From the NCBI GenBank assembly GCA_002311025.1, contig DBYY01000006.1, positions 6,112-70,111 of the forward strand: a DNA stretch of 64,000 bases, given 5' to 3'. The stretch comes from Candidatus Proelusimicrobium tauri. GTDB taxonomy: Bacteria; Elusimicrobiota; Elusimicrobia; Elusimicrobiales; Elusimicrobiaceae. The position numbers and the translations under genes are program-made. Positions 17,061 through 56,313 of this stretch are shown here, in pieces (the first letter of the stretch is position 1; every line of letters begins with the position of its first letter). A model generated the notes under the pieces. That model searched no databases. It worked only from the letters and a program-made list of their open reading frames with translations, and was not told where the DNA came from.

Positions 17061-17720
17061 TTAAAAACGCTTGCTTATATGTAACTGAAAAGTCATATAT
17101 TCGTATCTTCTGTTGCCGTCACCACAGATGGGAGAGGGAGCATCTTTAACAATTTTTTCGGTATCATACCAAAAGGTATTATAACGTGTTTCAAGTCCCC
17201 AACTCCAACCATTATGACCGACATCAAATTCAAGGCCCGCACCGATAAATAAGCCAAGCGAAGTATCCGTTTTTTTCTTGCTATATTCAGTACCATAATA
17301 ATTTATATATAAATTTTGTCTTGCAAGGGTAAGGCCCAAACCGAAGGGTATATAAAGGCGAAAACGCTTATCCGGATTAACAGTAAAACGCGAAGCCAAC
17401 ATAGCATTAAAAAGGTGGGTAGTATCGTCAACTTTATTTGTAGCGCTCCAAGTAAAATCGCCACCATCAAAATCTCCGTAGGAAATATCGGCACCAAGTC
17501 CAAAATGTCTTGATACCAGATAGTAATAGGAAGCACCTATTTCCACGCCTAAAGTTCCCCAGTCGACTCTTCCACCATAGTTTGAATAAGTAATACCGGA
17601 ATTTACCAATTGAAATCCCAAATCGCCCTTTATATCAAGAATATGTTGACCTTTTTCTAGTTGTGCAAAAGCAGGCAAACTAAGAAATAAAACAGTTAAA
17701 AAAAACAATAATTTTTTCAT
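17061..17720 (-). CDS. Outer-membrane beta-barrel protein (OmpA/OmpW-like barrel)
   Basis: Signal peptide ending AFA|QLE, aromatic-rich strands, and a C-terminal …HISKRF. Confidence 0.7.
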   Translation of the reverse strand: MKKLLFFLTVLFLSLPAFAQLEKGQHILDIKGDLGFQLVNSGITYSNYGGRVDWGTLGVEIGASYYYLVSRHFGLGADISYGDFDGGDFTWSATNKVDDTTHLFNAMLASRFTVNPDKRFRLYIPFGLGLTLARQNLYINYYGTEYSKKKTDTSLGLFIGAGLEFDVGHNGWSWGLETRYNTFWYDTEKIVKDAPSPICGDGNRRYEYMTFQLHISKRF

Positions 17721-27588: not shown

Positions 27589-28890
27589 ATGAAAAAATTT
27601 TTTCTACTTCTTATATTTGTCTTTCTTTATAATGTTTTATATGCCACACAAATTCATAAAATAACGGTAGAAACAACGGCTCTGCCGGAGCATTTTGTAA
27701 AGGATCGTTTTACTCTAAAAGAAGGCGATTTTTTTTCGCTTCAAAAATACGAACAGGCAAAACGAAACTTGGAAAATACAAAATTATTTAAGTCTTTAGA
27801 TATTTTATACAAAGAAGGTAAAGAAGGTGTAGATATTCATATAAAAGCGGAAGGACATACTTATATTTTGCCCGTTTTATTCGGTTTAAGCGTGGATAGA
27901 CATTCTGTCGGTGTTTCTTTAACTGTAAAAAATTTAGCAAAAAAGGGGGAAAGTTTTTATTCTTATTTTGGCTATGGGCGGGATGGCTTTGATACGAAAA
28001 ATGAAATAAATTTCGGTAGAAATTCTTTTGATATATATTATACTCATTTGGACTTTACCCAACATTTTTACAAAAACGGATGGTATAGCCGTAAAGGTGT
28101 TTTTCTTGTTGCTGATAAAAAAGATAAATATACTGATTTTTTGTTTAATAAAGTCAAAGGTATACAAGATAATTTTTTTATTTCTTACACTTACCAATTT
28201 TCAAGTATATGGAGTTTTTTTATTACGCCGGAATATGAATATTATCTTTATCAAAATAGGGCGTTGGATAGCGGCAATCACTCTCGCTTAACTTTTGGTT
28301 TACGCTACGGAGATCATATCAATGCCGGTATGAGTCTGCGCGGTTTAAATAAGATAGGGCATATAGAAAAAAAAGATATATTAAAAAATTTATCTTATCT
28401 TCAGCAGGGAAAACTGCTAGAAATTTCTTACATGGCGGGTGGTAAATGGAGCGCGAGTGATTATAATATTTCAAAACTTGCCGTTGAAGGCAGTTATCTT
28501 TGGGAGTTTAAGAGACATAATACTATTGCTTTATTTAGCAAATTTCAAAAGGCCTTTTGCGCGCCTTTCAGTAATTTGGTAGGTTCTTCCGATTTGCTGT
28601 TTGATATAGGTATTTACGATAGAGAGCAACGTGGCAAAGAAGGTCTTTCCGCCGGTTTGGAATTAACTTTCTTCCTTTTGCGTAATGAAACAGGCATAAT
28701 TCTTCTTTCTCCGTTTTATGAACAGGCCTATATTACTTCCGGCGGAAGTTCCTATAAATCGCACAGCGGAATCGGCGCAACGTTTGCTTTGCGTTTATGG
28801 AATATTCCTTTACCTATGAGTCTCAATTTTACGCATAATTTAAGTGATTCAAGTCAGCATCTCGGTTTTAAAATTGAAGGACATTTTTAA
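27589..28890 (+). CDS. Omp85-superfamily beta-barrel with one POTRA-like domain
   Basis: Signal peptide, a POTRA-like segment (IHKITVE…FTLKEGDFFSLQKYEQAKRNLENTKLFKSLDI), and a barrel ending …FKIEGHF. Confidence 0.65.
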   Translation: MKKFFLLLIFVFLYNVLYATQIHKITVETTALPEHFVKDRFTLKEGDFFSLQKYEQAKRNLENTKLFKSLDILYKEGKEGVDIHIKAEGHTYILPVLFGLSVDRHSVGVSLTVKNLAKKGESFYSYFGYGRDGFDTKNEINFGRNSFDIYYTHLDFTQHFYKNGWYSRKGVFLVADKKDKYTDFLFNKVKGIQDNFFISYTYQFSSIWSFFITPEYEYYLYQNRALDSGNHSRLTFGLRYGDHINAGMSLRGLNKIGHIEKKDILKNLSYLQQGKLLEISYMAGGKWSASDYNISKLAVEGSYLWEFKRHNTIALFSKFQKAFCAPFSNLVGSSDLLFDIGIYDREQRGKEGLSAGLELTFFLLRNETGIILLSPFYEQAYITSGGSSYKSHSGIGATFALRLWNIPLPMSLNFTHNLSDSSQHLGFKIEGHF

Positions 28891-30308: not shown

Positions 30309-30995
30309 CTAATCAAAAGTAAATTCCACGCTGCCGTCTTTATTAACTTTTTGGGTATTTGCGCTGGTATTGCTACCCTTTTGCGTAGCAATTAAATCTT
30401 TTGTATCAATTTCGGCAAACATACCTTTGTCAAGAATATCAAGTTGTCCTGTTCTGCCGGATAATTCCACTTCTGCGCGGTCTAAAGAAGAAACACTAAT
30501 TTTGTTTGCTTCAATATAATCAATATCTACGGAAGAACTTCCCTTTGCATCAATTTTTACTTGCCCGATATTAACATTTTTCAAAGAAACTTCTCCGTTT
30601 TTGCGTGTTTTAATTGTTAAATCTTGCCCTTGAAGGTAAGTTTGATTTTTAAAATCAGCCTCGCCGGAAACGACAATTCTGTTTAAAGCAGGGGCATTAA
30701 CATGAACTGCCACATCATCGTCATCTCCTGTAAAAAACGGCTGATTATATTCAATAAGAAGAGTATTTTCTTTTACTTTAATTTTAATGGCTTTTACCAG
30801 TTTAGCAGGTCCGCTTACTGTAAAAGAATATCCTTCTCCCTGTGAGAAAAAAACATTAACATCACCGCCATTTACTTCAATAGCGGAAAAAGCGGGTGCA
30901 TTAGGCACTTCGCGTGTTTTATATTCTTGTGCCAAAGCGGGAACGATACTTCCAAGCATGGCAATTATTGTTAGCATTTTAATTATTTTTTTCAT
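30309..30995 (-). CDS. Secreted DUF2807 / GIN-domain-like beta-helix protein
   Basis: Signal peptide ALA|QEY and repeated short beta units (…VNVFFSQGEGYSFTVSG…, …VSLKNVNIGQVKIDAKG…). The family call is tentative. Confidence 0.55.
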   Translation of the reverse strand: MKKIIKMLTIIAMLGSIVPALAQEYKTREVPNAPAFSAIEVNGGDVNVFFSQGEGYSFTVSGPAKLVKAIKIKVKENTLLIEYNQPFFTGDDDDVAVHVNAPALNRIVVSGEADFKNQTYLQGQDLTIKTRKNGEVSLKNVNIGQVKIDAKGSSSVDIDYIEANKISVSSLDRAEVELSGRTGQLDILDKGMFAEIDTKDLIATQKGSNTSANTQKVNKDGSVEFTFD

Positions 30996-36566: not shown

Positions 36567-36599
36567 AAACACAAACCCCCGTAAGGGGGTTTTGTTTTT
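36567..36599 (+). terminator. Rho-independent terminator
   Basis: aaaacacaaaccccc-gtaa-gggggttttgtttt. Confidence 0.85.
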
Positions 36600-36779
36600 A
36601 TGTAAATATCGGTTCTGATATGGCAAAGATATTAGGGGGAGCATCTTTTTGGAATGATAAGTATTTGCTTTTTTATGTTCACACAATGGTAGGGAATATT
36701 ATATAATATATATAATTCTAAACACTTAAGTAAAGGGGACTTACAGTGTATTTATAGGTAAAAAATGAAAACAGATTTG

Positions 36780-36805
36780 AAAAAAATATAAAAAAAATTA
36801 AAAAA
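36780..36805 (+). repeat. A7 / A8 / A6 homopolymer tracts in the 5' end of the autotransporter gene
   Basis: ATG 36765 reads MKTDLKKI*. The main frame upstream of 36851 encodes …KKIKKLLVVIITLQSFCCYSMNIALA|SE but has no start codon. Adding one A in 36780-36786 joins the two. Confidence 0.8.
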
Positions 36806-36850
36806 TTATTAGTTGTAATAATAACTCTACAATCATTTTGTTGTTACAGT

Positions 36851-39800
36851 ATGAATATTGCGCTAGCGTCGGAATATCCTTCGCTTATAGACGCAATACA
36901 AGCATCAACTACTCCTAGGACATATACCCTTGATGCAAACGAAACATCCCCAACTGTCTTGGGAGATATTACCGGTTGGAATTCTGTTCTTACCATAGAT
37001 GGCGGTACCGGAAATTACGGAATAAATAATACTTCAACGGCAAATGACGTAAGACTGTTCGTAAACAAAAACCAAACCGTTTACTTGCAAAATCTTGGAA
37101 CTTATACTACAACCACTTCGGATACTATTGTCGACGGTGTAAGTATCATTACAAGCGTTAGTGTAGGAAATTCTGTAAATAATTTCGGGAAAAATAGTGA
37201 CAGGGTAGGATTCCTTAGGTCTGCAGGAACTTCACACATTTCTAATTCTGTTTTTTATAATAACCGTGCTAAATTCGGCGGGTCATTACAAAACAGAGAA
37301 AATGGGACAATGTCTATTACAAATTCCGTTTTTGTAGAGAATACTTCTCCACAGGGTGCAGTTCATAATGATGGCGCAAATAAAATAACTCAAATATCAG
37401 GTTCTATATTTTATAATAATACGGCAATCACCCAGACTACCGGAGATACTGACTTGATTAATCGCAGTGGTAGTGCTATTTTCAATAAACCGAATAGGAC
37501 AATAGACCTTATTTCCGGTTCTCAATTTGTCAGTAACAATACAGTTTCTAATGCTACCGGTCAACAAACCGGGACGATATATAATGGTGGCACAATTACC
37601 GAGATATCAGATTCTGTATTTTATAACAATACCAATCAAAGAGGATCTGCCATAAATAATATAAGTGGCAGCACAATAAATACTATATCAGGTACAACAT
37701 TTGTCCAAAATACCACATCTAACGGATCGGGTGCAGCAATATTAAATGCAATCGGGTCAACCATAGACACAATAACAGGTTCTAATTTCGATTCTAACAC
37801 GGTAACATCTAACGGCGGTGCAATATATAATGAAGGGGAGATAAACACATTATCAGGTTCTTTTAAAGCTAACAGTGCTGACTCAAACGGCGGTGCAATT
37901 TATAATGAAGGCACAATAACTGATTTAGGTGGTACATACATATCTAACAGTGCAGTGTTTGGCGGTGCTTTATATAATGACGGAACAATAACCAACGCGA
38001 TAGATGCCACCTTCGGCGGTGATAATGGGACCGACGGTAACAGCGCAGACTTGGGTGGTGCAATCTATAATGCGGAAGGCAAAACCTTATCTGTTGCTTC
38101 AACATCAATATTTAAAAACAACACAGCAGCATTTGATGGCGGTGCAATAAACAACTCAGGTACGATAAATGCATTAGCGGGTACTTATACATCTAACAGT
38201 GCTGACTCAAACGGTGGTGCAATTTATAACTCAGGTACAATAAATAACTTTTTAGGGGTTTACACTTCAAACACGGCTACGACAAACGGCGGCGCTTTAT
38301 ATAATGACGGAACAATAACTAACGCAATAAATGCCACCTTCGGCGGTGATAATATAGCCGATGGTAACAGCGCAGACTTGGGTGGTGCGATTTATAATGC
38401 ATCAGGCAAAACCTTATCTGTTGCTTCAACATCAATATTTAAAAATAATGCAGCAACTGACGGCGGTGCAATTTATAATGAAGGTACGATAAATGCATTA
38501 GCGGGTACATATACATCTAATAGAGCAAACTCAAACGGCGGTGCAATTTATAACACAGGAACAATAAGCAACCTTTCAGGAACTTTCACTTCAAACACGG
38601 CTACAACAAACGGTGGCGCAATATATAACACAGGAACTGTAACAATAACTTCATCCGAGGGCGCAGATACAACATTTTCCGGTAACATTGTAAGTGGGTT
38701 TTCAAACGCATTGTATAATACAGGGACCGTCAACATGAATGCAGGTATGGAGAGTTCAATCGTTTTTAATGATCAAATAACAGGTTTCAACGGTACAATC
38801 AATATCGGTGGTGAAGGTGTAGTTGAATTTAATAGAAACGTAACAGGAAACAGTGTTGCATTAAATTCAGGCACACTAAAGTTAGGCTCAGTAAACAGTA
38901 TAAAAGATGCAACCACATTTACAGCAAACGGTGGTACATTAGATTTGCGTAACGGCGGAGTTCATAATTATCAGTTAGGTCAAAACACAATAATTAATGA
39001 TACGGTAGATTTGGCAATAGATGTCAATTTGTCAGGCACAACCCCTGTTGCCGATATGATTACAGCAGCCGGTACAGTTAGCGGAACAGGTAGTTTTGTA
39101 TTTTCATCAGCAAATATCAATATAATGAGTTATGCCGATGAAAAAATACCTTTATGGGTACAAGTAACAGATGAAAACTTAAGAAATTATGCAGGTTTGG
39201 GTACCAATGCAAATATACATATAACAGGCAGTGAACCTGAGAGTTACTTTATAACTTACGAAACAACACACGATAGTGTAAATGCGGGTTTCCTTAAGTT
39301 TGAACACGACACATTGTGGAATGCGATAGCCTCAACGGTGGCAGAGAAAGCCTACACAATGGGCAGTGATGAAGATTTAACAAGCACACCGGCATTAGGC
39401 GGAACAAGTTTAACGATAAACGGAAATGAGGCAGGACATTCTATAACAGGAGATACCGGCACAGGTATAGTGGTGGGTGATACTCAAACCTTATCATTAA
39501 ACAATATAGGTGTAGATAATGAAGGGAATGTAAGCGGAGCGGGTTTAAATAATTTTGATACAGCAATAACAGTTGCCGCAAACGGAACAGTCAATATCTA
39601 TAATACGAAGTTCAGCGGAAATAGTACTGATATAGATAATGATGGAATAGTTAATATGTCCGGAAATGTTATATTTGATAATGCCGAAGGGGAAGGCACA
39701 ATAAATATAACCAAAGACAGTGAAGGAAATGCTTCTACAATAACAGTAAATAACAGTTTAGAACAAGATAATATAAATGTAGAAAGCGAAAATAGTTTAA

Positions 39801-42800
39801 CAAATGATAATGCAACGATAACAGTAAACACAGCATTGAATAACGCAGGGGCCATATCAGGTACCGGCACAAGTGCCCTAGTGATAAACGGAGATTCTAC
39901 AAATACAGGCACAATTGAGCAAGGAACAGTTACGGTAGCCTCCTTAATAACATTAGCAAACGAAGGAAGTATCACTGTAAATAGCGTATTAGACAATACA
40001 GGTTCAATAATCGGTGATGGTAGTTTGAATATAAATGTGACAACGACAAATGAAGGTATAATCGAACAAAATATCTTATTGACAGATAACGGCATAACAT
40101 TAACTAATAGCGGTGATATTACAGTAAAAGATACATTAACCAATAACGGAACAATAGAAAACAATAATGACTTAACCTTATCCGGAACTGCTATGACAAA
40201 TGAGGGTGTTATAACCGGCACAGGAACAACGAATATAACCGGCGCAGTAACAAATGAAGGTACAATTTCTCAAACAGAAGTTAAAATATCTGTTGGAGCG
40301 GAATTAGTATCTGATGCAAGCGATATAACAACAACAGGTGGTATAACAAACGACGGTACACTAGAATTAACCGGAGGTAATATTACAAGTGATATATTGA
40401 GCGCAAGCGGAACAACAAATATTACCGGTGAAGTAACAAATAATGCTGCTCATTCAATTGCTAATGCTATTGATATCGAAAACAGTGCTAAATTAACCAC
40501 TAATGCCAATGCCCTATTGAATACCGTAAACAATGACGGCACATTAGAATTAACCGGCGGTACTGTTACGGAAGATATTTCAGGAAATGGTTCCTTAGGA
40601 TTTACAGACAGTATCCAAAATTCAGCCAATATAGAACAAGGTTCTATGACTGTTAATAGTGGCAAAACACTAACCAATAATAGTGGCGCTTCCATAACAA
40701 CGACTGATAGTGCCTTAGGTGAAGGTTTCCAAAATAACGGAACCGTATTAAATGATGGTACTATCACTGTTGCCGGTGGCAATAATACAGGTTCCATTAC
40801 TGGAGGTGGAACATTTGCTAATAACGGAGATTTCACAAATAGCAATACTATAAACCAAAATGCTATTACCAATGACGGGACACTAACTACAAATTCAGAG
40901 AACTTGGTAGCCACAAGCGGTATTACCAATAACGGTACATTGGTATATAATGCCGGAAGTAAAACCGTTAGTGATATTATAGGTGATGGTAGTGCAAATT
41001 CAAAGGTAGAATTAAGAACAAATGCACCGTTTGTAATTGATAATACAATTTCAAATACTTATGTCGATTTGTATAATTCAACCTTGAAATTCGGTAATAG
41101 TGGTAATATCTCAAGTGCTACCGCACTTAATATTAACGGCGGTGGAATAAATACGATTGATGGAAATATCTCATCTACAAATCTTGGAACCGTGAATTTG
41201 AACGCACAGTCAAATCTCGAAATAGATATTGATGTGAGCAGTCTTACTTCAGATTCCTTCAATGCTACCGTAAATAATAATGGTGGTATATTTAATATTA
41301 ATGAAATTAACTTAATTGGCTCAGCAACCAGTGAGAATATAAAAGTTCATTTAGGTGATATGACAGGGTTAGGGCAAGAAAATGTTACTTCCGAAACAAT
41401 ATCATTACCATCTATTATGACGCCTATTCGCAAAATTAACGGAAGCCTAAAAGACGGTTGGTTAATCTATGAAGGGGGATCTAGTTCGGATGTGTCTGAT
41501 TTCAATCCTGCAGTTTTGGTAACTCCTGTTGCAATGCAAGCAGGTATGCAGGCAATTATGGATAATATCTTCCAATATTCTTATGAGCATGCTGATTGGT
41601 ACACCAAATTCCCCGAAACGGAAAGATATGCCAGGTTAGCAACAGGTAATGCATACAAAGATAACTCTGCTATATGGTTTAAAACATATTCTACTTTTGA
41701 GGATATTGCGCTTAAAGACGGTCCTAAGGTTGATGCAACATCTTATGGTGCTTTAATCGGTTTTGACACTAACTTCCAAGATCTTGGGCGTGATTGGTAT
41801 GGTGTTACAACCGGATTTGTGGGATATAACGGCGCTCAAATGGATTATAGTGACGTGAATTCTTCAATGAATGGTGGGCTAGTCGGCTTAACGCAGACTT
41901 TCTACAAGAATAATTTCTGGACGGGAGTTTCAGCAAATGCCGGAGTTAGCAGTGTAGAAGCCCATACAATGTACGGTCGTGACAGTTTAACAATATTATC
42001 TGCCGGAATCGGTACGCAAACTGGTTATAATTTTGAACTTAGTGACGGCAAGTTTATTATACAACCTGTTTGGTATATGACTTACAGTATGATTAATCCT
42101 TTTGATTATACAAATGCTGCCGATGTAAAGATTAAATCTGATCCTTTACATACATTACAATTAAGTCCGATGGTAAGATTTATAGGCAATGTAAAAGGTT
42201 GGCAGCCTTATGCCTCGGTCGGTATGGTATTCAACTTGATGAACAACACAAGTGTAACGGCAGATTCCATAAAATTACCGAAAATGCACATGAAACCCTA
42301 TGTCCAATATGATATTGGCGTACAGAAGAAAATCGGAGAAAGATTTACCGGATTTTTACAGTTCGCGGGACATAATGGTGGCCGAGACGGTCTAGGTGTT
42401 TCCGCCGGTTTACGTTGGGCTTTTGGTAAAGGTGGCAATAGTTCTCAAGCAATTAAGATAAATAATTACGCCGAAAATACCGCAGTTACCGAAAATAGTC
42501 AAGAGGTTCAAACAGAAAAACCGTTCATAGTAACACAAGAAATCGATGTCAAACAAGAAAAGGGTACAGGCGCAGAATCGCTTGCAAATGTAGAGGATAT
42601 CAATAAAAAACAGCAAGATGTAAAAACTGATAAATCGGTTGCAAACACTCAAAAAATTGATAAAAAACAGCAGGATGCCAGAGAAGAAGAACTGGTCAGA
42701 GATGTTCAAAATGTCGATAAAGAGCAGAAAGATACTAAAGAAACCGATGTAAAAGTGCAACAGAGTAAAAACGAACAGAAGTCCCAAGCCGAAGAATCGG

Positions 42801-42961
42801 TCAAAAATGCTCAAAATATCGATAAAGGGCAGACAAATACCAAAACAGAAGAACCTGCTACAAAGACACAAGAAAATAATAGATTAGCAATGGCTATTGT
42901 CATTGGTGTTGCATTACTATTTGTTATATTCGTTCTCAGAAGAAAAGTAGGTAGAAAATAA
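36851..42961 (+). CDS. Giant Pmp-repeat autotransporter with post-barrel C-terminal extension
   Basis: Dozens of GGAIYN / FxxN (SVFYNN, SIFKNN) repeats, a beta-domain (…AIWFKTYS… to …GLGVSAGLRWAF at 42424), and 178 further in-frame codons. As written, the ATG at 36851 has no signal peptide or RBS. Confidence 0.85.
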   Translation: MNIALASEYPSLIDAIQASTTPRTYTLDANETSPTVLGDITGWNSVLTIDGGTGNYGINNTSTANDVRLFVNKNQTVYLQNLGTYTTTTSDTIVDGVSIITSVSVGNSVNNFGKNSDRVGFLRSAGTSHISNSVFYNNRAKFGGSLQNRENGTMSITNSVFVENTSPQGAVHNDGANKITQISGSIFYNNTAITQTTGDTDLINRSGSAIFNKPNRTIDLISGSQFVSNNTVSNATGQQTGTIYNGGTITEISDSVFYNNTNQRGSAINNISGSTINTISGTTFVQNTTSNGSGAAILNAIGSTIDTITGSNFDSNTVTSNGGAIYNEGEINTLSGSFKANSADSNGGAIYNEGTITDLGGTYISNSAVFGGALYNDGTITNAIDATFGGDNGTDGNSADLGGAIYNAEGKTLSVASTSIFKNNTAAFDGGAINNSGTINALAGTYTSNSADSNGGAIYNSGTINNFLGVYTSNTATTNGGALYNDGTITNAINATFGGDNIADGNSADLGGAIYNASGKTLSVASTSIFKNNAATDGGAIYNEGTINALAGTYTSNRANSNGGAIYNTGTISNLSGTFTSNTATTNGGAIYNTGTVTITSSEGADTTFSGNIVSGFSNALYNTGTVNMNAGMESSIVFNDQITGFNGTINIGGEGVVEFNRNVTGNSVALNSGTLKLGSVNSIKDATTFTANGGTLDLRNGGVHNYQLGQNTIINDTVDLAIDVNLSGTTPVADMITAAGTVSGTGSFVFSSANINIMSYADEKIPLWVQVTDENLRNYAGLGTNANIHITGSEPESYFITYETTHDSVNAGFLKFEHDTLWNAIASTVAEKAYTMGSDEDLTSTPALGGTSLTINGNEAGHSITGDTGTGIVVGDTQTLSLNNIGVDNEGNVSGAGLNNFDTAITVAANGTVNIYNTKFSGNSTDIDNDGIVNMSGNVIFDNAEGEGTINITKDSEGNASTITVNNSLEQDNINVESENSLTNDNATITVNTALNNAGAISGTGTSALVINGDSTNTGTIEQGTVTVASLITLANEGSITVNSVLDNTGSIIGDGSLNINVTTTNEGIIEQNILLTDNGITLTNSGDITVKDTLTNNGTIENNNDLTLSGTAMTNEGVITGTGTTNITGAVTNEGTISQTEVKISVGAELVSDASDITTTGGITNDGTLELTGGNITSDILSASGTTNITGEVTNNAAHSIANAIDIENSAKLTTNANALLNTVNNDGTLELTGGTVTEDISGNGSLGFTDSIQNSANIEQGSMTVNSGKTLTNNSGASITTTDSALGEGFQNNGTVLNDGTITVAGGNNTGSITGGGTFANNGDFTNSNTINQNAITNDGTLTTNSENLVATSGITNNGTLVYNAGSKTVSDIIGDGSANSKVELRTNAPFVIDNTISNTYVDLYNSTLKFGNSGNISSATALNINGGGINTIDGNISSTNLGTVNLNAQSNLEIDIDVSSLTSDSFNATVNNNGGIFNINEINLIGSATSENIKVHLGDMTGLGQENVTSETISLPSIMTPIRKINGSLKDGWLIYEGGSSSDVSDFNPAVLVTPVAMQAGMQAIMDNIFQYSYEHADWYTKFPETERYARLATGNAYKDNSAIWFKTYSTFEDIALKDGPKVDATSYGALIGFDTNFQDLGRDWYGVTTGFVGYNGAQMDYSDVNSSMNGGLVGLTQTFYKNNFWTGVSANAGVSSVEAHTMYGRDSLTILSAGIGTQTGYNFELSDGKFIIQPVWYMTYSMINPFDYTNAADVKIKSDPLHTLQLSPMVRFIGNVKGWQPYASVGMVFNLMNNTSVTADSIKLPKMHMKPYVQYDIGVQKKIGERFTGFLQFAGHNGGRDGLGVSAGLRWAFGKGGNSSQAIKINNYAENTAVTENSQEVQTEKPFIVTQEIDVKQEKGTGAESLANVEDINKKQQDVKTDKSVANTQKIDKKQQDAREEELVRDVQNVDKEQKDTKETDVKVQQSKNEQKSQAEESVKNAQNIDKGQTNTKTEEPATKTQENNRLAMAIVIGVALLFVIFVLRRKVGRK
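37971..38450 (+). repeat. Near-identical ~327-bp tandem duplication inside the passenger
   Basis: 37971-38125 and 38298-38450 are about 90%+ identical by eye (LYNDGTITNAI.ATFGGDN…NSADLGGAIYNA.GKTLSVASTSIFKNN). Confidence 0.8.
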
Positions 42962-43234: not shown

Positions 43235-44362
43235 ATGAAAATAAATAAAAATATAATTCCATTATTTACTTTTTTGACTTTTTTTGCAGTTGCGTGTTCC
43301 AATAACGCAAATATTGCAGCCATAGTAAACGGGACAAAAATAACTAAAAAAACATACGAAGGGACATTAGATAACTTAATATCACAACAAAAACAAAAGA
43401 ATCCTAAATTTGTTGATAATGAACAAACGCGTTTATTGTTAGGGAAAATGGCCTTAGAACAGATAATCACAAATGAAGTGTTATCTCAAGAAGCCCAAAA
43501 AGCAAAAATTACAGTAAAAGACGAAGCCGTAGATCAAAATATAAGTAATCTTAAAAAACTTATTGCTGTTGATCAAAATGGTAAGGCTATTACAGATAAA
43601 AAACAAATAGAAGAAAAATTTAATGAAAAATTAAAAACAGACGGAATAACATTAAAGCAATTAAGGGAAAATATCCACAAAGAGTTAAGTGCAAAACTTT
43701 TCTTAAAAGACTTGTCTGATAAACAAAAAATAGAATTAACCGAAGATGTTTTAACGAGATTTTATGATGCCACAATGGCAGTTGTAGATAATAATCAAAG
43801 TAAAATAAAATCTTTACCTAAAGAAGATTTAGCATTAGTTAATCCTTTTGCTATGGAAGTAAAAAAAGCCACTTCCGAAAGGGTTGCTGTTTCAACAGTA
43901 TTTTTATCGACTCCAAAAACAATGAGTAATACAGAAATTGCTAATAAAAAGAATTTGGCTAATAAAATCGTACAAGAATTAAAAGATAAAAAGATTGCTT
44001 TTATACAAGCAATACAAACATATTCTGACGATAAAAACGCGTTGAAAACAAACGGAGAGCAGATTGTAATACGCGGAATATTGCCCAAAAACTTAAATGA
44101 TAAAATATTTGAAGCACCTTTAGGCAAAGTTATAGGGCCTATTACTGAGCAAGAAGGTATATATATTTTACGCGTAAATGAAAAACGCGCCGCTAATACT
44201 TTGACATACAATCAACTTCGTAATAGTATAATTAATTATTTGGATCCTATACAGTTAAGACAAAAAGTACAGCAACAAGTTAAAGATTTGGTTCAAAAAT
44301 CCAAAATAGAAATTCTTTTACCAGAATACCAAGTCAATAACATTAAACAGGATACAAAATAG
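43235..44362 (+). CDS. SurA/PrsA-like peptidyl-prolyl isomerase lipoprotein
   Basis: Lipobox FAVAC, a SurA-N-like chaperone region, and a parvulin core (…GPITEQEGIYILRVNEKR). Confidence 0.75.
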   Translation: MKINKNIIPLFTFLTFFAVACSNNANIAAIVNGTKITKKTYEGTLDNLISQQKQKNPKFVDNEQTRLLLGKMALEQIITNEVLSQEAQKAKITVKDEAVDQNISNLKKLIAVDQNGKAITDKKQIEEKFNEKLKTDGITLKQLRENIHKELSAKLFLKDLSDKQKIELTEDVLTRFYDATMAVVDNNQSKIKSLPKEDLALVNPFAMEVKKATSERVAVSTVFLSTPKTMSNTEIANKKNLANKIVQELKDKKIAFIQAIQTYSDDKNALKTNGEQIVIRGILPKNLNDKIFEAPLGKVIGPITEQEGIYILRVNEKRAANTLTYNQLRNSIINYLDPIQLRQKVQQQVKDLVQKSKIEILLPEYQVNNIKQDTK

Positions 44363-53451: not shown

Positions 53452-53628
53452 CTTTATAAATAAAAATTAACAAATCTGTTTTAAAATAATTATTCCCGAT
53501 GATATTTTTGATACTTTTTATTATAAAGTATTATATTAAGAATTAAAATATTTGCTACAATAATATTAAGAACTTTCATATTTAAGTAGAATTTATAAAA
53601 AGTATTATTTAAGGAGAGTGTGGATATT

Positions 53629-56313
53629 ATGAAAATTAATTTCACCTGGTTTTTATCTTTTATTTTTACATTGACTTTTTTATCTGCCCAAGCAACCGAA
53701 GTTAATAATTTTTCAGATTTAACTTCCGAAGGGGATTTCACTTTTGCACAAGATATTATTGTCGATCCTGGCACCCCTTCCGTAACTTTGCTTAACGCAA
53801 CCGTTGACGGCGCAAATCATAGCTTAACCGGTGTTCAAGGAACTTATCTTAATATGGGTTCATCCTCTTCTACCACCCCCGTTACACTTAGAAATATAGG
53901 TTCTATAGAAGATGGCACTGCGGAGGATAATACTTTTTCCTATCAAAATGCTAATGGGGATACGATTTATAAAAAAATTACACAATCTTTCAATAGCTTT
54001 CACAAGACAAGTGATAATCAGAATAATATTTTAGGCACAGTTAATATTGAAAATTCGGTTTTTGCTAATAATCTATCTGATCAACATGCTGGATTATTTT
54101 ATGCTGATTCAAATGCCCATGTGAATATTATAAATTCTGTCTTTTATAATAACCGAACTGCAGAAAATTTTCTAGCTGGTGGAGTCATGTGGACAGATAC
54201 AAGTGGGAATTTTATAATAAACTCTTCACTATTTGTAGGCAATAGCGCAGGTGAGGGCGGTGTTTTTAATATTAGTGCGCCAAATTATATTTCCAATTCT
54301 GTCTTTGCCAATAACCAAGCAACTGTATCTGGTGGAGGAGCAATTTGGTATGATATGGCGGCTGTTAGCATGCATTATCAAAATTATATCATCAACTCTG
54401 AATTTATTAACAATACAGCCCTCAATTATTTAGGGGGGGCTTTATATTTTAATGGTATTAATGATGGGGTGCACATTATGAATACCTCGTTTATTGGTAA
54501 TTCAGCCTCCTATGGTGGTGCTATTCTTATATCTAAATATCGTGAAGTGCCCTTTTCCATTGTTGATTCTTCCTTTAAGAATAATAGTGCTAATGAAGGT
54601 GCCGCTATATACAATGCAAATAATGACTTAAATATTTTTGCTGTTAATAAGGATGTCCTTTTTGACGGAAACACCGCAAGCAATGAAACTTCAGATTATA
54701 ATGCAGGTAGCGATATTTATTTTGAAGCTAGCGAAAATAACGCTACTTTATCTTTAAATGCTGCCAGTGGTAGAAAAATTATTTTTAATGGAAGTATCGC
54801 TTCTTATACAGATGGAACAGTAGCTAATATAGATATTAATAAATCAGGTTTAACTTATTCCCCGGATATTGATGTTATTGTTCCTATGGTATCTGATGAT
54901 ACTAGCGAAATTCAGTTTAATAATCGTGTTGGTGATGCTACTTATAATTTTGATATTAATTTATACGGCGGTGTTTTATCTATCGGGCAAAATGCAACTA
55001 CTAATGCCTCTATAGATAATCCCGATGGTTTTATTGATGGAAATAACTTAAATGTTGTTAATAATGCAACTCTTTATACAATTAATAATATTGTGGGTTC
55101 TGTTAATTTGAAAAACTTAGACCTTGCCTCAAACTTAAATATTCAAGTTGATGCAGATTTAGCAGAATCAGAAATGGATACAATTCATACAGATACTCTT
55201 ACGGGGGATAGCAATATTGTTGTGTCTGGGGTTAATATTTTAACTGATGCGGAGGAGGATACTACTGTTGTTCAATTTACCGATGGAGATTTAACCGATC
55301 ATGTTTCTATACAAGATAATCTTGAGGTATCTTCTCCCTTGTATAGATATTCTGTTGCCGATAATGGTGATGGAACTTTAACTTTTACGCGTTCGGGGAA
55401 TACTCCTGATAGCCCAAGTATTTTTGAGCAACCTGTCGCTGCAAATATGGCTTTGAATATTCAAGATCATATTAATAATTTACTTTTCCATGATTTCAAT
55501 TTATCTAGGTATAATGAACCTCAAAAAGGCAGAGCCGGTGGCGATGAAGCAAAAAATAAAAATATTTGGTTTAAAATTTATGGCTTTGATGATAAAAGTG
55601 ATTATAAGAAAGTATCCGATGTTAAAACAAAAACATTTATGGCTGTTTTAGGCTTTAACAAAGAAATGGATATTTTTGAAGATGTTTCTTCTAACTTAAA
55701 TGTTTATGGCGGTTATGTGTATGGCAATATTCGTTATAATAATATAAAAATTGACCAACCGGGAGAATATTTAGGTTTAAATCTTGATTCAAAATATAAA
55801 AATCTTATTTTATCATTTAACTTGACTGGTGGTTTAATGCAACCGCAAATAGATGATATTAATGGGAAACATCATCATACAAATCCTTGGGTTGGTGTTG
55901 CTTCAAATATAGGTTATCAATTTTATGTCAATCCTTATTTTATGATAGAACCAAGTTTAATTGCTTCTTATACTTATATTCACACAGATGATTATACAAA
56001 TATATCAAATGTAAAAGTTAAAGCAGATGACTACCATGTTTTTGAATTAGTTCCTAATTTGCGTGCTGCCTATGGCATAAATAAGAATTGGGATGTTTTC
56101 GGTGATGTTCGTTATGCTTTTAGCGATAGTCATGGCGGAACTATCAGAGTGGAAGAAGTCGCAATTCCTGCGTTAAATATGGCGAAATTTGTTGAGTATG
56201 GTTTAGGTGTAAGAACTCATTATAATAATTATACTTTTGAAGTTGCCTTATATCGCAGAGATGGAAAGAGGGAAGGCTTTAACGGATATTTAAATTTGCG
56301 TTATAATTTTTAA
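53629..56313 (+). CDS. Pmp-repeat autotransporter (canonical architecture)
   Basis: aaggag RBS, signal peptide …LSAQA|TE, FxxN/GGA repeats, and a beta-domain ending YLNLRYNF*. Confidence 0.85.
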   Translation: MKINFTWFLSFIFTLTFLSAQATEVNNFSDLTSEGDFTFAQDIIVDPGTPSVTLLNATVDGANHSLTGVQGTYLNMGSSSSTTPVTLRNIGSIEDGTAEDNTFSYQNANGDTIYKKITQSFNSFHKTSDNQNNILGTVNIENSVFANNLSDQHAGLFYADSNAHVNIINSVFYNNRTAENFLAGGVMWTDTSGNFIINSSLFVGNSAGEGGVFNISAPNYISNSVFANNQATVSGGGAIWYDMAAVSMHYQNYIINSEFINNTALNYLGGALYFNGINDGVHIMNTSFIGNSASYGGAILISKYREVPFSIVDSSFKNNSANEGAAIYNANNDLNIFAVNKDVLFDGNTASNETSDYNAGSDIYFEASENNATLSLNAASGRKIIFNGSIASYTDGTVANIDINKSGLTYSPDIDVIVPMVSDDTSEIQFNNRVGDATYNFDINLYGGVLSIGQNATTNASIDNPDGFIDGNNLNVVNNATLYTINNIVGSVNLKNLDLASNLNIQVDADLAESEMDTIHTDTLTGDSNIVVSGVNILTDAEEDTTVVQFTDGDLTDHVSIQDNLEVSSPLYRYSVADNGDGTLTFTRSGNTPDSPSIFEQPVAANMALNIQDHINNLLFHDFNLSRYNEPQKGRAGGDEAKNKNIWFKIYGFDDKSDYKKVSDVKTKTFMAVLGFNKEMDIFEDVSSNLNVYGGYVYGNIRYNNIKIDQPGEYLGLNLDSKYKNLILSFNLTGGLMQPQIDDINGKHHHTNPWVGVASNIGYQFYVNPYFMIEPSLIASYTYIHTDDYTNISNVKVKADDYHVFELVPNLRAAYGINKNWDVFGDVRYAFSDSHGGTIRVEEVAIPALNMAKFVEYGLGVRTHYNNYTFEVALYRRDGKREGFNGYLNLRYNF

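Follow-up and report, generated by a model that had tools for sequence, protein, structure and literature searches.

Results

An autotransporter frame that continues past its barrel

The window analyzed here, a stretch of 64,000 nucleotides from contig DBYY01000006.1 of Candidatus Proelusimicrobium tauri (Elusimicrobiaceae), contains an open reading frame (ORF) on the + strand (36851..42961) that encodes a 2036-residue autotransporter, and our subject is the tail that this protein carries behind its predicted outer membrane barrel. The last barrel strand, …GLGVSAGLRWAF (…GLRWAF), runs to residue F1858 (nucleotide 42424) with no stop codon adjacent. An earlier note on this DNA had claimed that the frame runs for 178 codons beyond the terminal strand, and translation of the ORF agrees—the same frame stays open until TAA at 42959-42961, and the protein ends in …NNRLAMAIVIGVALLFVIFVLRRKVGRK-TAA, with the helix LAMAIVIGVALLFVIFVL followed by RRKVGRK. 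At the base composition of the tail, an open frame of 178 codons would arise by chance with P ~1e-6, and stops interrupt the other two + frames of the tail 8 and 17 times. A second autotransporter in the window (53620-56313) ends normally, as the note also held, with …YLNLRYNF-stop; its barrel aligns end to end with that of the first (24% identity, E 2e-22), and LRYNF-stop falls opposite LRWAF1858. Features of the locus are listed in Table 1.

Table 1. Features of the tailed autotransporter gene and its upstream region, in window coordinates
Feature	Position	Strand	Basis or remark
Terminator-like hairpin of the preceding MIP gene	36573-36592		
Promoter-like site TTCACA-18-TATAAT, 11/12	36678..36707	+	Consensus match only; precedes ATG 36765
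Signal-peptide coding region, split by a 1-nt deletion	36765..36868	+	Comparison with P0145
Passenger, ~1550 residues, GGAIYN/FxxN polymorphic-membrane-protein-type repeats	36869..41506	+	NCBIfam POMP_repeat, translation
Helix at the type Va pore-helix position, residues 1553-1577	41507..41581	+	AlphaFold helix, model residues 54-78
Predicted 12-stranded outer membrane beta-barrel, residues 1607-1858	41669..42424	+	AlphaFold, Foldseek, paralogue alignment
Tail start: GKG, then polar segment predicted to be disordered, residues 1859-1911	42425..42583	+	AlphaFold, tail alignment
Acidic K/Q/D/E-rich spacer of 19-residue repeats	42584..42859	+	Self-match analysis
Polar pre-helix motif TKTQENNR	42860..42883	+	Tail alignments
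18-residue hydrophobic helix, residues 2012-2029, predicted inner membrane stop-transfer anchor	42884..42937	+	Hessa, AlphaFold, conservation
Basic end RRKVGRK and stop codon, predicted cytoplasmic	42938..42961	+	Translation, orthologue ends

The barrel is of a kind that sequence-based annotation barely detects. The Pfam autotransporter beta-domain (PF03797) gave no match to the window protein at E up to 0.1 and recognizes one of 45 family barrels, with some homologues having a precomputed PF03797 match, and a sequence-profile search of the PDB with the barrel region returned nothing. Because both approaches were blind to this region, the fold itself was tested, and fold comparison alone succeeded. 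An AlphaFold model of residues 1500-2036, built from an alignment of 45 sequences (mean predicted local distance difference test score, pLDDT, of 79), contains twelve strands at model residues 108-358, mostly with pLDDT >90, the last of which (346-358) reaches F1858. When this model was compared with the PDB by Foldseek, the top 18 matches were all type Va barrels (EspP, EstA, AIDA-I, BrkA, AaaA, Hbp, and NalP), with E 1e-14 to 1e-9 and target TM-scores up to 0.84. The proposal that RWAF belongs to a canonical terminal strand is thus borne out by the model, the fold matches, and the paralogue alignment, all of which put it at the barrel end rather than mid-barrel; at the level of a predicted structure, RWAF is shown to be where the barrel ends. 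A helix at model residues 54-78 probably sits inside the pore, a placement that follows from matching solved structures and not from coordinates. The barrel family (window 41348-42424) is, as an observation in its own right, practically invisible to standard domain annotation despite a type Va fold match at E 1e-14.

By fold and domain order, then, the protein is a type Va autotransporter, with a large N-terminal passenger of Pmp-type repeats (four stretches matching NCBIfam POMP_repeat, E 2.5e-4; Chlam_PMP matches in 6 of 45 family members) and a 12-strand C-terminal barrel with a helical linker, as seen in the AlphaFold and Foldseek results. It departs from the type Va definition in lacking a PF03797 match and in that the last barrel strand is not the C-terminus of the protein, 178 residues following F1858.

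Layout of the tail

AlphaFold divides the region after the barrel into a disordered part (model residues 364-412, pLDDT <50), a moderately confident helix over the repeats (413-488), a second disordered part (489-505), and a terminal helix (506-536). Four units of about 19 residues had been described in the spacer, and these are located at residues 1912, 1931, 1950, and 1985. The ungapped self-match of the linker peaks at an offset of 19 with a score of 109, which none of 500 shuffles attained (mean 44.7, maximum 81). Tandem Repeats Finder returned no rows for the tail DNA, and the repeat is detectable at the protein level only. We read VTQEIDVKQEKGTGAESL (residues 1894-1911) as what may be one more, degenerate unit. 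Between units 3 and 4 lies a 16-residue insert, ETDVKVQQSKNEQKSQ (42737-42784), that is specific to the window, missing from all orthologues and aligned to a gap in P0093; it shows that spacer length changes through in-frame indels.

The hydrophobic helix is 18 residues long at the place originally reported, and LAMAIVIGVALLFVIFVL provides the sole 19-residue window in the whole protein with a negative Hessa sum (-2.3 kcal/mol; next lowest, +5.5). Pfam recognized no family in the whole protein or in the tail, including SLH, OmpA, YadA_anchor, and LysM domains. Separately, we observed a small-x-x-x-small pattern (AIVIG, AITIG, AIAIG, and others) early in the terminal helix, within its first third, and a Gly is in register in five of six aligned tails; the pattern is compatible with either helix-helix packing or recognition by an intramembrane protease. 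An antisense ORF over the tail (42410-42871, - strand, 153 residues) was rejected as spurious, being an F/L/C-rich low-complexity mirror of K/E/Q codons; similar antisense ORFs occur in L002 and L004.

Conservation of the tail in Elusimicrobiaceae

A database search with barrel plus tail recovered 269 relatives, nearly all metagenomic. Together with scans of GTDB species genomes and metagenomes and the tail-profile search described below, this yielded seven distinct tail-bearing sequences—the window, P0145/L081, L001 (=P0146), L002, L003 (=P0093=L084), L004, and L083, the last added by the metagenome scan—all from rumen or gut Elusimicrobiaceae assemblies where a taxon is given. In all seven, barrel, spacer, hydrophobic helix, and basic end lie in one ORF. 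P0145 is a full-length orthologue of 1734 residues; P0093 has a colinear tail ending in …DNNNLAVALAVAAVLILIIFALRRKK, with 49% identity over barrel plus tail and a single 16-residue gap; and L001-L004, rumen metagenome-assembled genomes labeled Elusimicrobiaceae or Elusimicrobium, align with the query as far as residue 532-533 within one ORF.

Six of the seven sequences were compared in detail. Directly after the barrel, GKG is invariant (6/6); the linkers that follow are 120-153 residues long with a net negative charge (-5 to -21) and abundant Q, N, K, and E, and they lead to helices of 15-19 apolar residues and to C-terminal ends with two to five basic residues, those of the orthologues being RKRK, RKW, QQRKGK, RRKK, QQRKGK, and QRRKRR. 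A T-[Q/E/K]-x-[S/N]-N pattern is seen again ahead of the helix in the orthologues, and the Hessa sum lies between -2.3 and -4.7 kcal/mol in five of the six helices. The best self-match offset is 19 in every tail compared (in five of them, 0 of 100 shuffles reached the observed score). Sequence identity among orthologues is 29-48% in the tail versus 61-88% in the barrel, and dN/dS, which is a rough figure here with dS near saturation, is 0.26-0.48 in the tail and 0.07-0.21 in the barrel. Linker prolines number 5-11 in orthologues, usually at unit boundaries, and two in the window, so that what is conserved is a segmented spacer and not a single long helix. More generally, conservation of length, periodicity, and anchor across orthologues argues that the tail is translated and has been selected for these properties rather than for its exact sequence.

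The view that a separate gene is unlikely holds up well. An exhaustive search of 1.84 billion cluster representatives with a tail profile recovered P0093 and P0145 only, both autotransporters, and no stand-alone protein with the tail; homologues thus carry the same post-barrel tail in frame, with no separately translated version. A word-indexed search with the tail alone returned nothing, and one with the six-tail profile returned only P0146 (identical to L001), because the tail shares too few exact words with other sequences. Within the tail there is no Met ahead of the helix; the barrel-tail junction showed no terminator-like site, and promoter-like sites in the vicinity of the tail match the consensus only weakly. 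With a single ORF conserved in all seven sequences, we rejected both a separate gene and an internal start. As far as sequence comparison can establish it, the tail architecture and its conservation are shown to be real, and the tail forms one gene with the barrel.

Post-barrel extensions in the wider barrel family

The post-barrel extension had been regarded as unusual in itself, and in this respect the wider family tells otherwise. Among 76 further genome loci (L005-L080, mostly Gastranaerophilales, Melainabacteria), 73 encode at least 10 residues after the barrel and 37 at least 50, and among 117 database homologues with a recognizable barrel end, tails range from 2 to 159 residues (median 37). 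What is limited to one Elusimicrobiaceae clade is the combination of a hydrophobic helix with an acidic spacer of 19-residue repeats and a basic end. The tails of helix-less relatives are Lys-rich and net basic (median +6), and a C-terminus of the form hydrophobic-(K/R)-x-(L/I/M), such as IKSL or LKQL, occurs in 48 of 158 non-redundant tails. A folded domain in such tails was considered and rejected, as AlphaFold predicts that of P0101 to be disordered (pLDDT <50). Some of the family tails also carry RKVIKQL…NTTRTT motifs. In the literature searched, we found no description of such tails on classical autotransporters.

Start codon, signal peptide, and gene neighborhood

The earlier figure of 2036 residues is correct as the length of the ORF, although its start is not that of the gene; the signal peptide is missing from this ORF because of a 1-nt frameshift, and the real start is ATG 36765. 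From there, translation gives MKTDLKKI-stop, and the -1 frame gives KKIKKLLVVIITLQSFCCYSMNIALA|SEYPS and joins the annotated ORF (ATG 36851). In the orthologue P0145, the signal peptide is intact, with an N-terminus of MNNDLKKIIREAKRLFVTVITVQLLCCHSVNVAWA|AEYAS, so that an N-terminal Sec signal peptide is encoded but split in the window and whole in P0145. At the frameshift site, P0145/L081 reads TTGAAAAAAATTATAAGA and the window TTGAAAAAAATATAAAAA, with one base fewer within an A/T run; written in longer form, the window stretch is TTGAAAAAAATATAAAAAAAATT, against TTGAAAAAAATTATAAGA in L081. The identical truncated 2036-residue gene call is present on three contigs. The frameshift may reflect phase variation caught in the OFF state, recent pseudogene formation, or -1 slippage on the A-run, and the window copy may be switched off or decaying in its source genome.

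Directly downstream (43235-44362) lies a gene for a SurA/PpiC-type peptidyl-prolyl isomerase with a lipoprotein-like signal (…FFAVAC|S), which is syntenic in two of four orthologous loci (L002 4705-5907 and L004 4732-5856) at 71-76% identity; judging by its sequence, its product may be a dedicated periplasmic chaperone. In L081, the gene after that of P0145 (6756-7241) encodes a protein with prepilin-type N-terminal methylation (N_methyl) in place of the SurA-like gene, and downstream synteny is thus conserved only in part. The remaining neighbors are metabolic or transport genes unrelated to the autotransporter. The contig was assembled from a bovine rumen metagenome (SRR094424), and the MIP protein encoded next to the autotransporter clusters at 90% identity with a protein labeled Elusimicrobiaceae. 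No sortase, exosortase, or rhomboid was found among the 43 window ORFs scanned with Pfam, and no other window ORF has a comparable helix with a basic C-terminus. Further envelope genes in the window are a 433-residue POTRA-domain ORF (27589-28890), a small OMP_b-brl barrel protein (17061-17720), and a DUF2807 protein (putative autotransporter adhesin head GIN domain) at 30309-30995.

Discussion

A possible inner membrane anchor on an outer membrane adhesin

We propose that the tail is a conserved C-terminal module of a divergent type Va adhesin in which the helix serves to stop transfer and to anchor the protein in the inner membrane, with the spacer spanning the periplasm, and we put the probability of this proposal at about one half. 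Autotransporter barrels with 12 strands (that is, an even number) have a periplasmic C-terminus, and their strands are too weakly hydrophobic to halt transfer through Sec. A segment of 18-19 apolar residues followed by Arg/Lys is, by comparison, the Sec stop-transfer element of LPXTG, PEP-CTERM, and GlyGly-CTERM proteins. From this topology and these properties, we infer that export would halt at the terminal helix and that the helix would insert into the inner membrane; its persistence there and its function are likewise read from the architecture. As regards the helix and basic end, the earlier idea of an inner-membrane-type anchor fares well, in that stop-transfer properties are predicted from the negative Hessa sum and the tail alignments. 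The NCBIfam model TIGR01167 (LPXTG_anchor) also scores above its cutoff on three orthologue tails, over the helix and basic residues, which indicates that this segment resembles known stop-transfer anchors. We estimate the linker at ~18-23 nm if fully helical and >40 nm if extended, which would suffice to span a periplasm that we put at roughly 20-30 nm.

Under this proposal, the precursor would be exported from N- to C-terminus via Sec until the terminal helix stops transfer and leaves sideways into the inner membrane, with RRKVGRK remaining in the cytoplasm. The barrel would then be assembled in the outer membrane, and the spacer would remain threaded through the peptidoglycan, so that the adhesin is held in both membranes. 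By analogy with other large adhesins, the likely benefit would be mechanical anchoring, or mechanical or proteolytic stabilization, of a very large protein. The further claim that the mature adhesin resides permanently in both membranes—through a barrel inserted by the barrel assembly machinery (BAM) and a Sec stop-transfer helix, with the spacer of 19-residue repeats serving as a strap or ruler of the periplasm—is more tentative, and we would rate it at somewhat under even odds.

Several points weigh against anchoring. To our knowledge, all previously known C-terminal cassettes of helix plus basic cluster on exported bacterial proteins are processed sorting signals, and the conserved Gly or small residue in the helix, together with the semi-conserved T-Q-x-N-N before it, is a possible protease or sortase site. 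Retention of the tail in the mature protein is itself something we infer from its sequence. In L002 the helix is short (15 residues, Hessa sum +0.8), and the fast evolution of the spacer implies no specific binding partner. Finally, owing to the frameshift in its signal peptide, the window copy is possibly not made at all in the source genome.

Alternative explanations

The main rival account, rather unlikely in our estimation, is one in which the helix and basic end form a cleavable sorting or retention signal, in the manner of LPXTG with sortase, GlyGly-CTERM with rhombosortase, or PEP-CTERM with exosortase, and the mature protein is not embedded in the inner membrane. The precursor would then be held at the inner membrane only transiently while a membrane enzyme cuts it and perhaps joins the spacer to peptidoglycan or lipid, a course of events that we doubt to a similar degree. 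The layout is suitably tripartite, with the polar T-Q-x-N-N, a helix containing the conserved Gly or small residue, and a basic cluster, and a hydrophobic segment with a basic cluster at the extreme C-terminus is indeed what sortase signals have; moreover, every cassette of this shape known to us behaves in this way. TIGR01167 scores 17.5-18.4 bits (cutoff 15.9) on the three orthologue tails, and Rumino_NPXTG reaches 20.8 bits on one tail, under its cutoff of 23.5. These profile matches, however, span only the helix and basic part (positions ~4-33), LPXTG, NPXTG, PEP, and GG motifs are absent, and the tail of the window protein hits none of the sorting-domain models. No LPXTG-like pentapeptide precedes the hydrophobic segment in any of the seven tails, and the CTERM models stay below cutoff (Synergist_CTERM, 10.9 of 22.5 bits; PEF-CTERM, 12.3 of 23 bits). 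Membership in the LPXTG family was therefore rejected, the NCBIfam tail matches being weak and LPXTG_anchor covering, on the 40-residue ends, the helix and basic part only. Against a sorting signal also stand the detection of the cassette on one orthologue group only and the lack of a candidate processing enzyme among the window ORFs scanned, and the conserved length and 19-residue periodicity point to a role for the spacer in the mature protein.

A second alternative, which we regard as improbable, is that the tail is a local form of the periplasmic extension seen across the family, its hydrophobic end binding BAM, a chaperone, another copy of the protein, or the membrane surface, uninserted. 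The helix-less tails of at least 10 residues at 73 of 76 related loci suggest that members of the family can carry periplasmic tails and presumably make use of them; a gene for a SurA-like lipoprotein is syntenic downstream in three loci, and A-x-x-x-G in the helix suggests helix-helix packing. Yet 18-19 apolar residues with a negative insertion energy, followed by Arg/Lys, would be expected to be captured by SecYEG during export, and the helix-less tails differ in kind, being Lys-rich and net basic (+6) against acidic linkers (-5 to -21).

An artificial origin of the tail, whether through loss or misreading of a stop codon, chimeric assembly, fusion to a separate gene downstream, or pseudogene decay, is scarcely credible, for although the window copy does have one frameshift, in the signal-peptide region, and all data come from metagenome assemblies, the frame is open over ~145-178 codons in seven sequences from independent assemblies, with indels in multiples of three and dN/dS <0.5, and the lack of a stand-alone homologue, of a Met before the helix, and of a terminator-like site at the junction speaks likewise for one gene. 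On the sequences compared, error, fusion, and a separate gene can for practical purposes be excluded.

Comparison with known systems

The architecture stands on firm ground and would come as a surprise to specialists; the key functional claim is hypothetical, and the organisms are uncultured. We know of no outer membrane beta-barrel proteins that carry inner membrane helices. The literature searched, with incomplete coverage and hence as absence of evidence only, offered no example, among classical autotransporters or other barrel proteins, of a C-terminal inner membrane helix, in keeping with the earlier statement that no described classical autotransporter has this architecture.

With classical type Va proteins such as EspP, NalP, BrkA, AIDA-I, and EstA, the protein shares an encoded signal peptide (intact in P0145 but split in the window), a long repeat passenger, a helix at the pore position, a 12-strand barrel, and a last strand of alternating hydrophobic residues ending in an aromatic F. 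It differs from them in the 145-178 residues beyond this terminal F and in a highly divergent barrel (PF03797 in 1 of 45). With LPXTG, GlyGly-CTERM, and PEP-CTERM signals it has in common a low-complexity spacer, a hydrophobic helix, and a basic cluster at the extreme C-terminus; unlike them, it has no signature motif and no cognate enzyme seen in the window, was seen only on a single orthologue group, and is attached to an outer membrane barrel. Were the helix cleaved after all, a type V protein would still carry a C-terminal sorting signal not known before.

A functional parallel may lie among trimeric (type Vc) autotransporters, where the statement in the earlier note that post-barrel domains have been reported proved accurate: type Vc adhesins are described with periplasmic SLH, coiled-coil, or OmpA domains after the anchor (PMC7549365; bioRxiv 10.64898/2026.01.22.700529). 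In both sources the domains belong to trimeric autotransporters rather than type Va ones, and neither source mentions a membrane anchor (PMC7549365; bioRxiv 10.64898/2026.01.22.700529). Such periplasmic domains are needed for stability and may withstand shear (bioRxiv 10.64898/2026.01.22.700529; PMC13082670); loss of the domain from a Veillonella trimeric autotransporter leads to its degradation (bioRxiv 10.64898/2026.01.22.700529), and TpgA counters extraction of AtaA from the membrane (PMC13082670). Like Veillonella Vta (SLH/coiled coil) and the Streptobacillus proteins (OmpA), the tailed adhesins come from non-Proteobacteria and have periplasmic residues after the barrel with a proposed role in stabilizing or anchoring the adhesin. 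By analogy, we propose that the tail does the same job as the peptidoglycan-binding periplasmic domains of trimeric autotransporters. The means would be different: type Vc proteins are trimers with four strands per chain that bind peptidoglycan or form coiled coils, with no membrane helix reported, and here the barrel is predicted to be monomeric with 12 strands and an inner-membrane-type anchor at the end, with neither a YadA-type trimerizing 4-strand anchor nor an SLH, OmpA, or LysM domain. Independently of the anchor, the tails on almost every member of this Pfam-invisible family (Gastranaerophilales and Elusimicrobiaceae) extend the finding from trimeric autotransporters to classical ones.

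A predicted inner membrane helix joined to a long low-complexity segment that crosses the periplasm to the outer membrane also recalls VirB10/TraF, TonB, and TolA. VirB10 is inserted in both membranes and has been described as uniquely placed for spanning both (PMC4182333). In VirB10, TonB, and TolA, however, the inner membrane helix is N-terminal, giving the reverse polarity, and contact with the outer membrane is made by an alpha-helical cap (VirB10) or a docking domain (TonB and TolA) rather than by a BAM-type beta-barrel. Energy or signal transduction is unlikely for the tailed adhesin, as its cytoplasmic part would comprise only 3-7 residues. Similarly, in OmpA and OmpM an outer membrane barrel is joined to a periplasmic part through which the outer membrane is held to a layer beneath it (PMC10628300 for OmpM), although these proteins, like Lpp and Pal, tether to peptidoglycan through folded domains or covalent bonds, unlike the attachment to the inner membrane by a helix that is predicted here.

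Should permanent anchoring in both membranes be borne out, this would be the first beta-barrel outer membrane protein known to be tail-anchored in the inner membrane. If the tail stays attached, BAM would have to fold the barrel, as a natural substrate, while its C-terminus, ~150 residues further on, is held in the inner membrane, which bears on the physical proximity of Sec and BAM, and the tail would offer a natural spacer for probing the width of the periplasm. If true, the arrangement would represent a third way to secure very large adhesins in the fluid outer membrane, besides peptidoglycan-binding domains and helpers such as TpgA.

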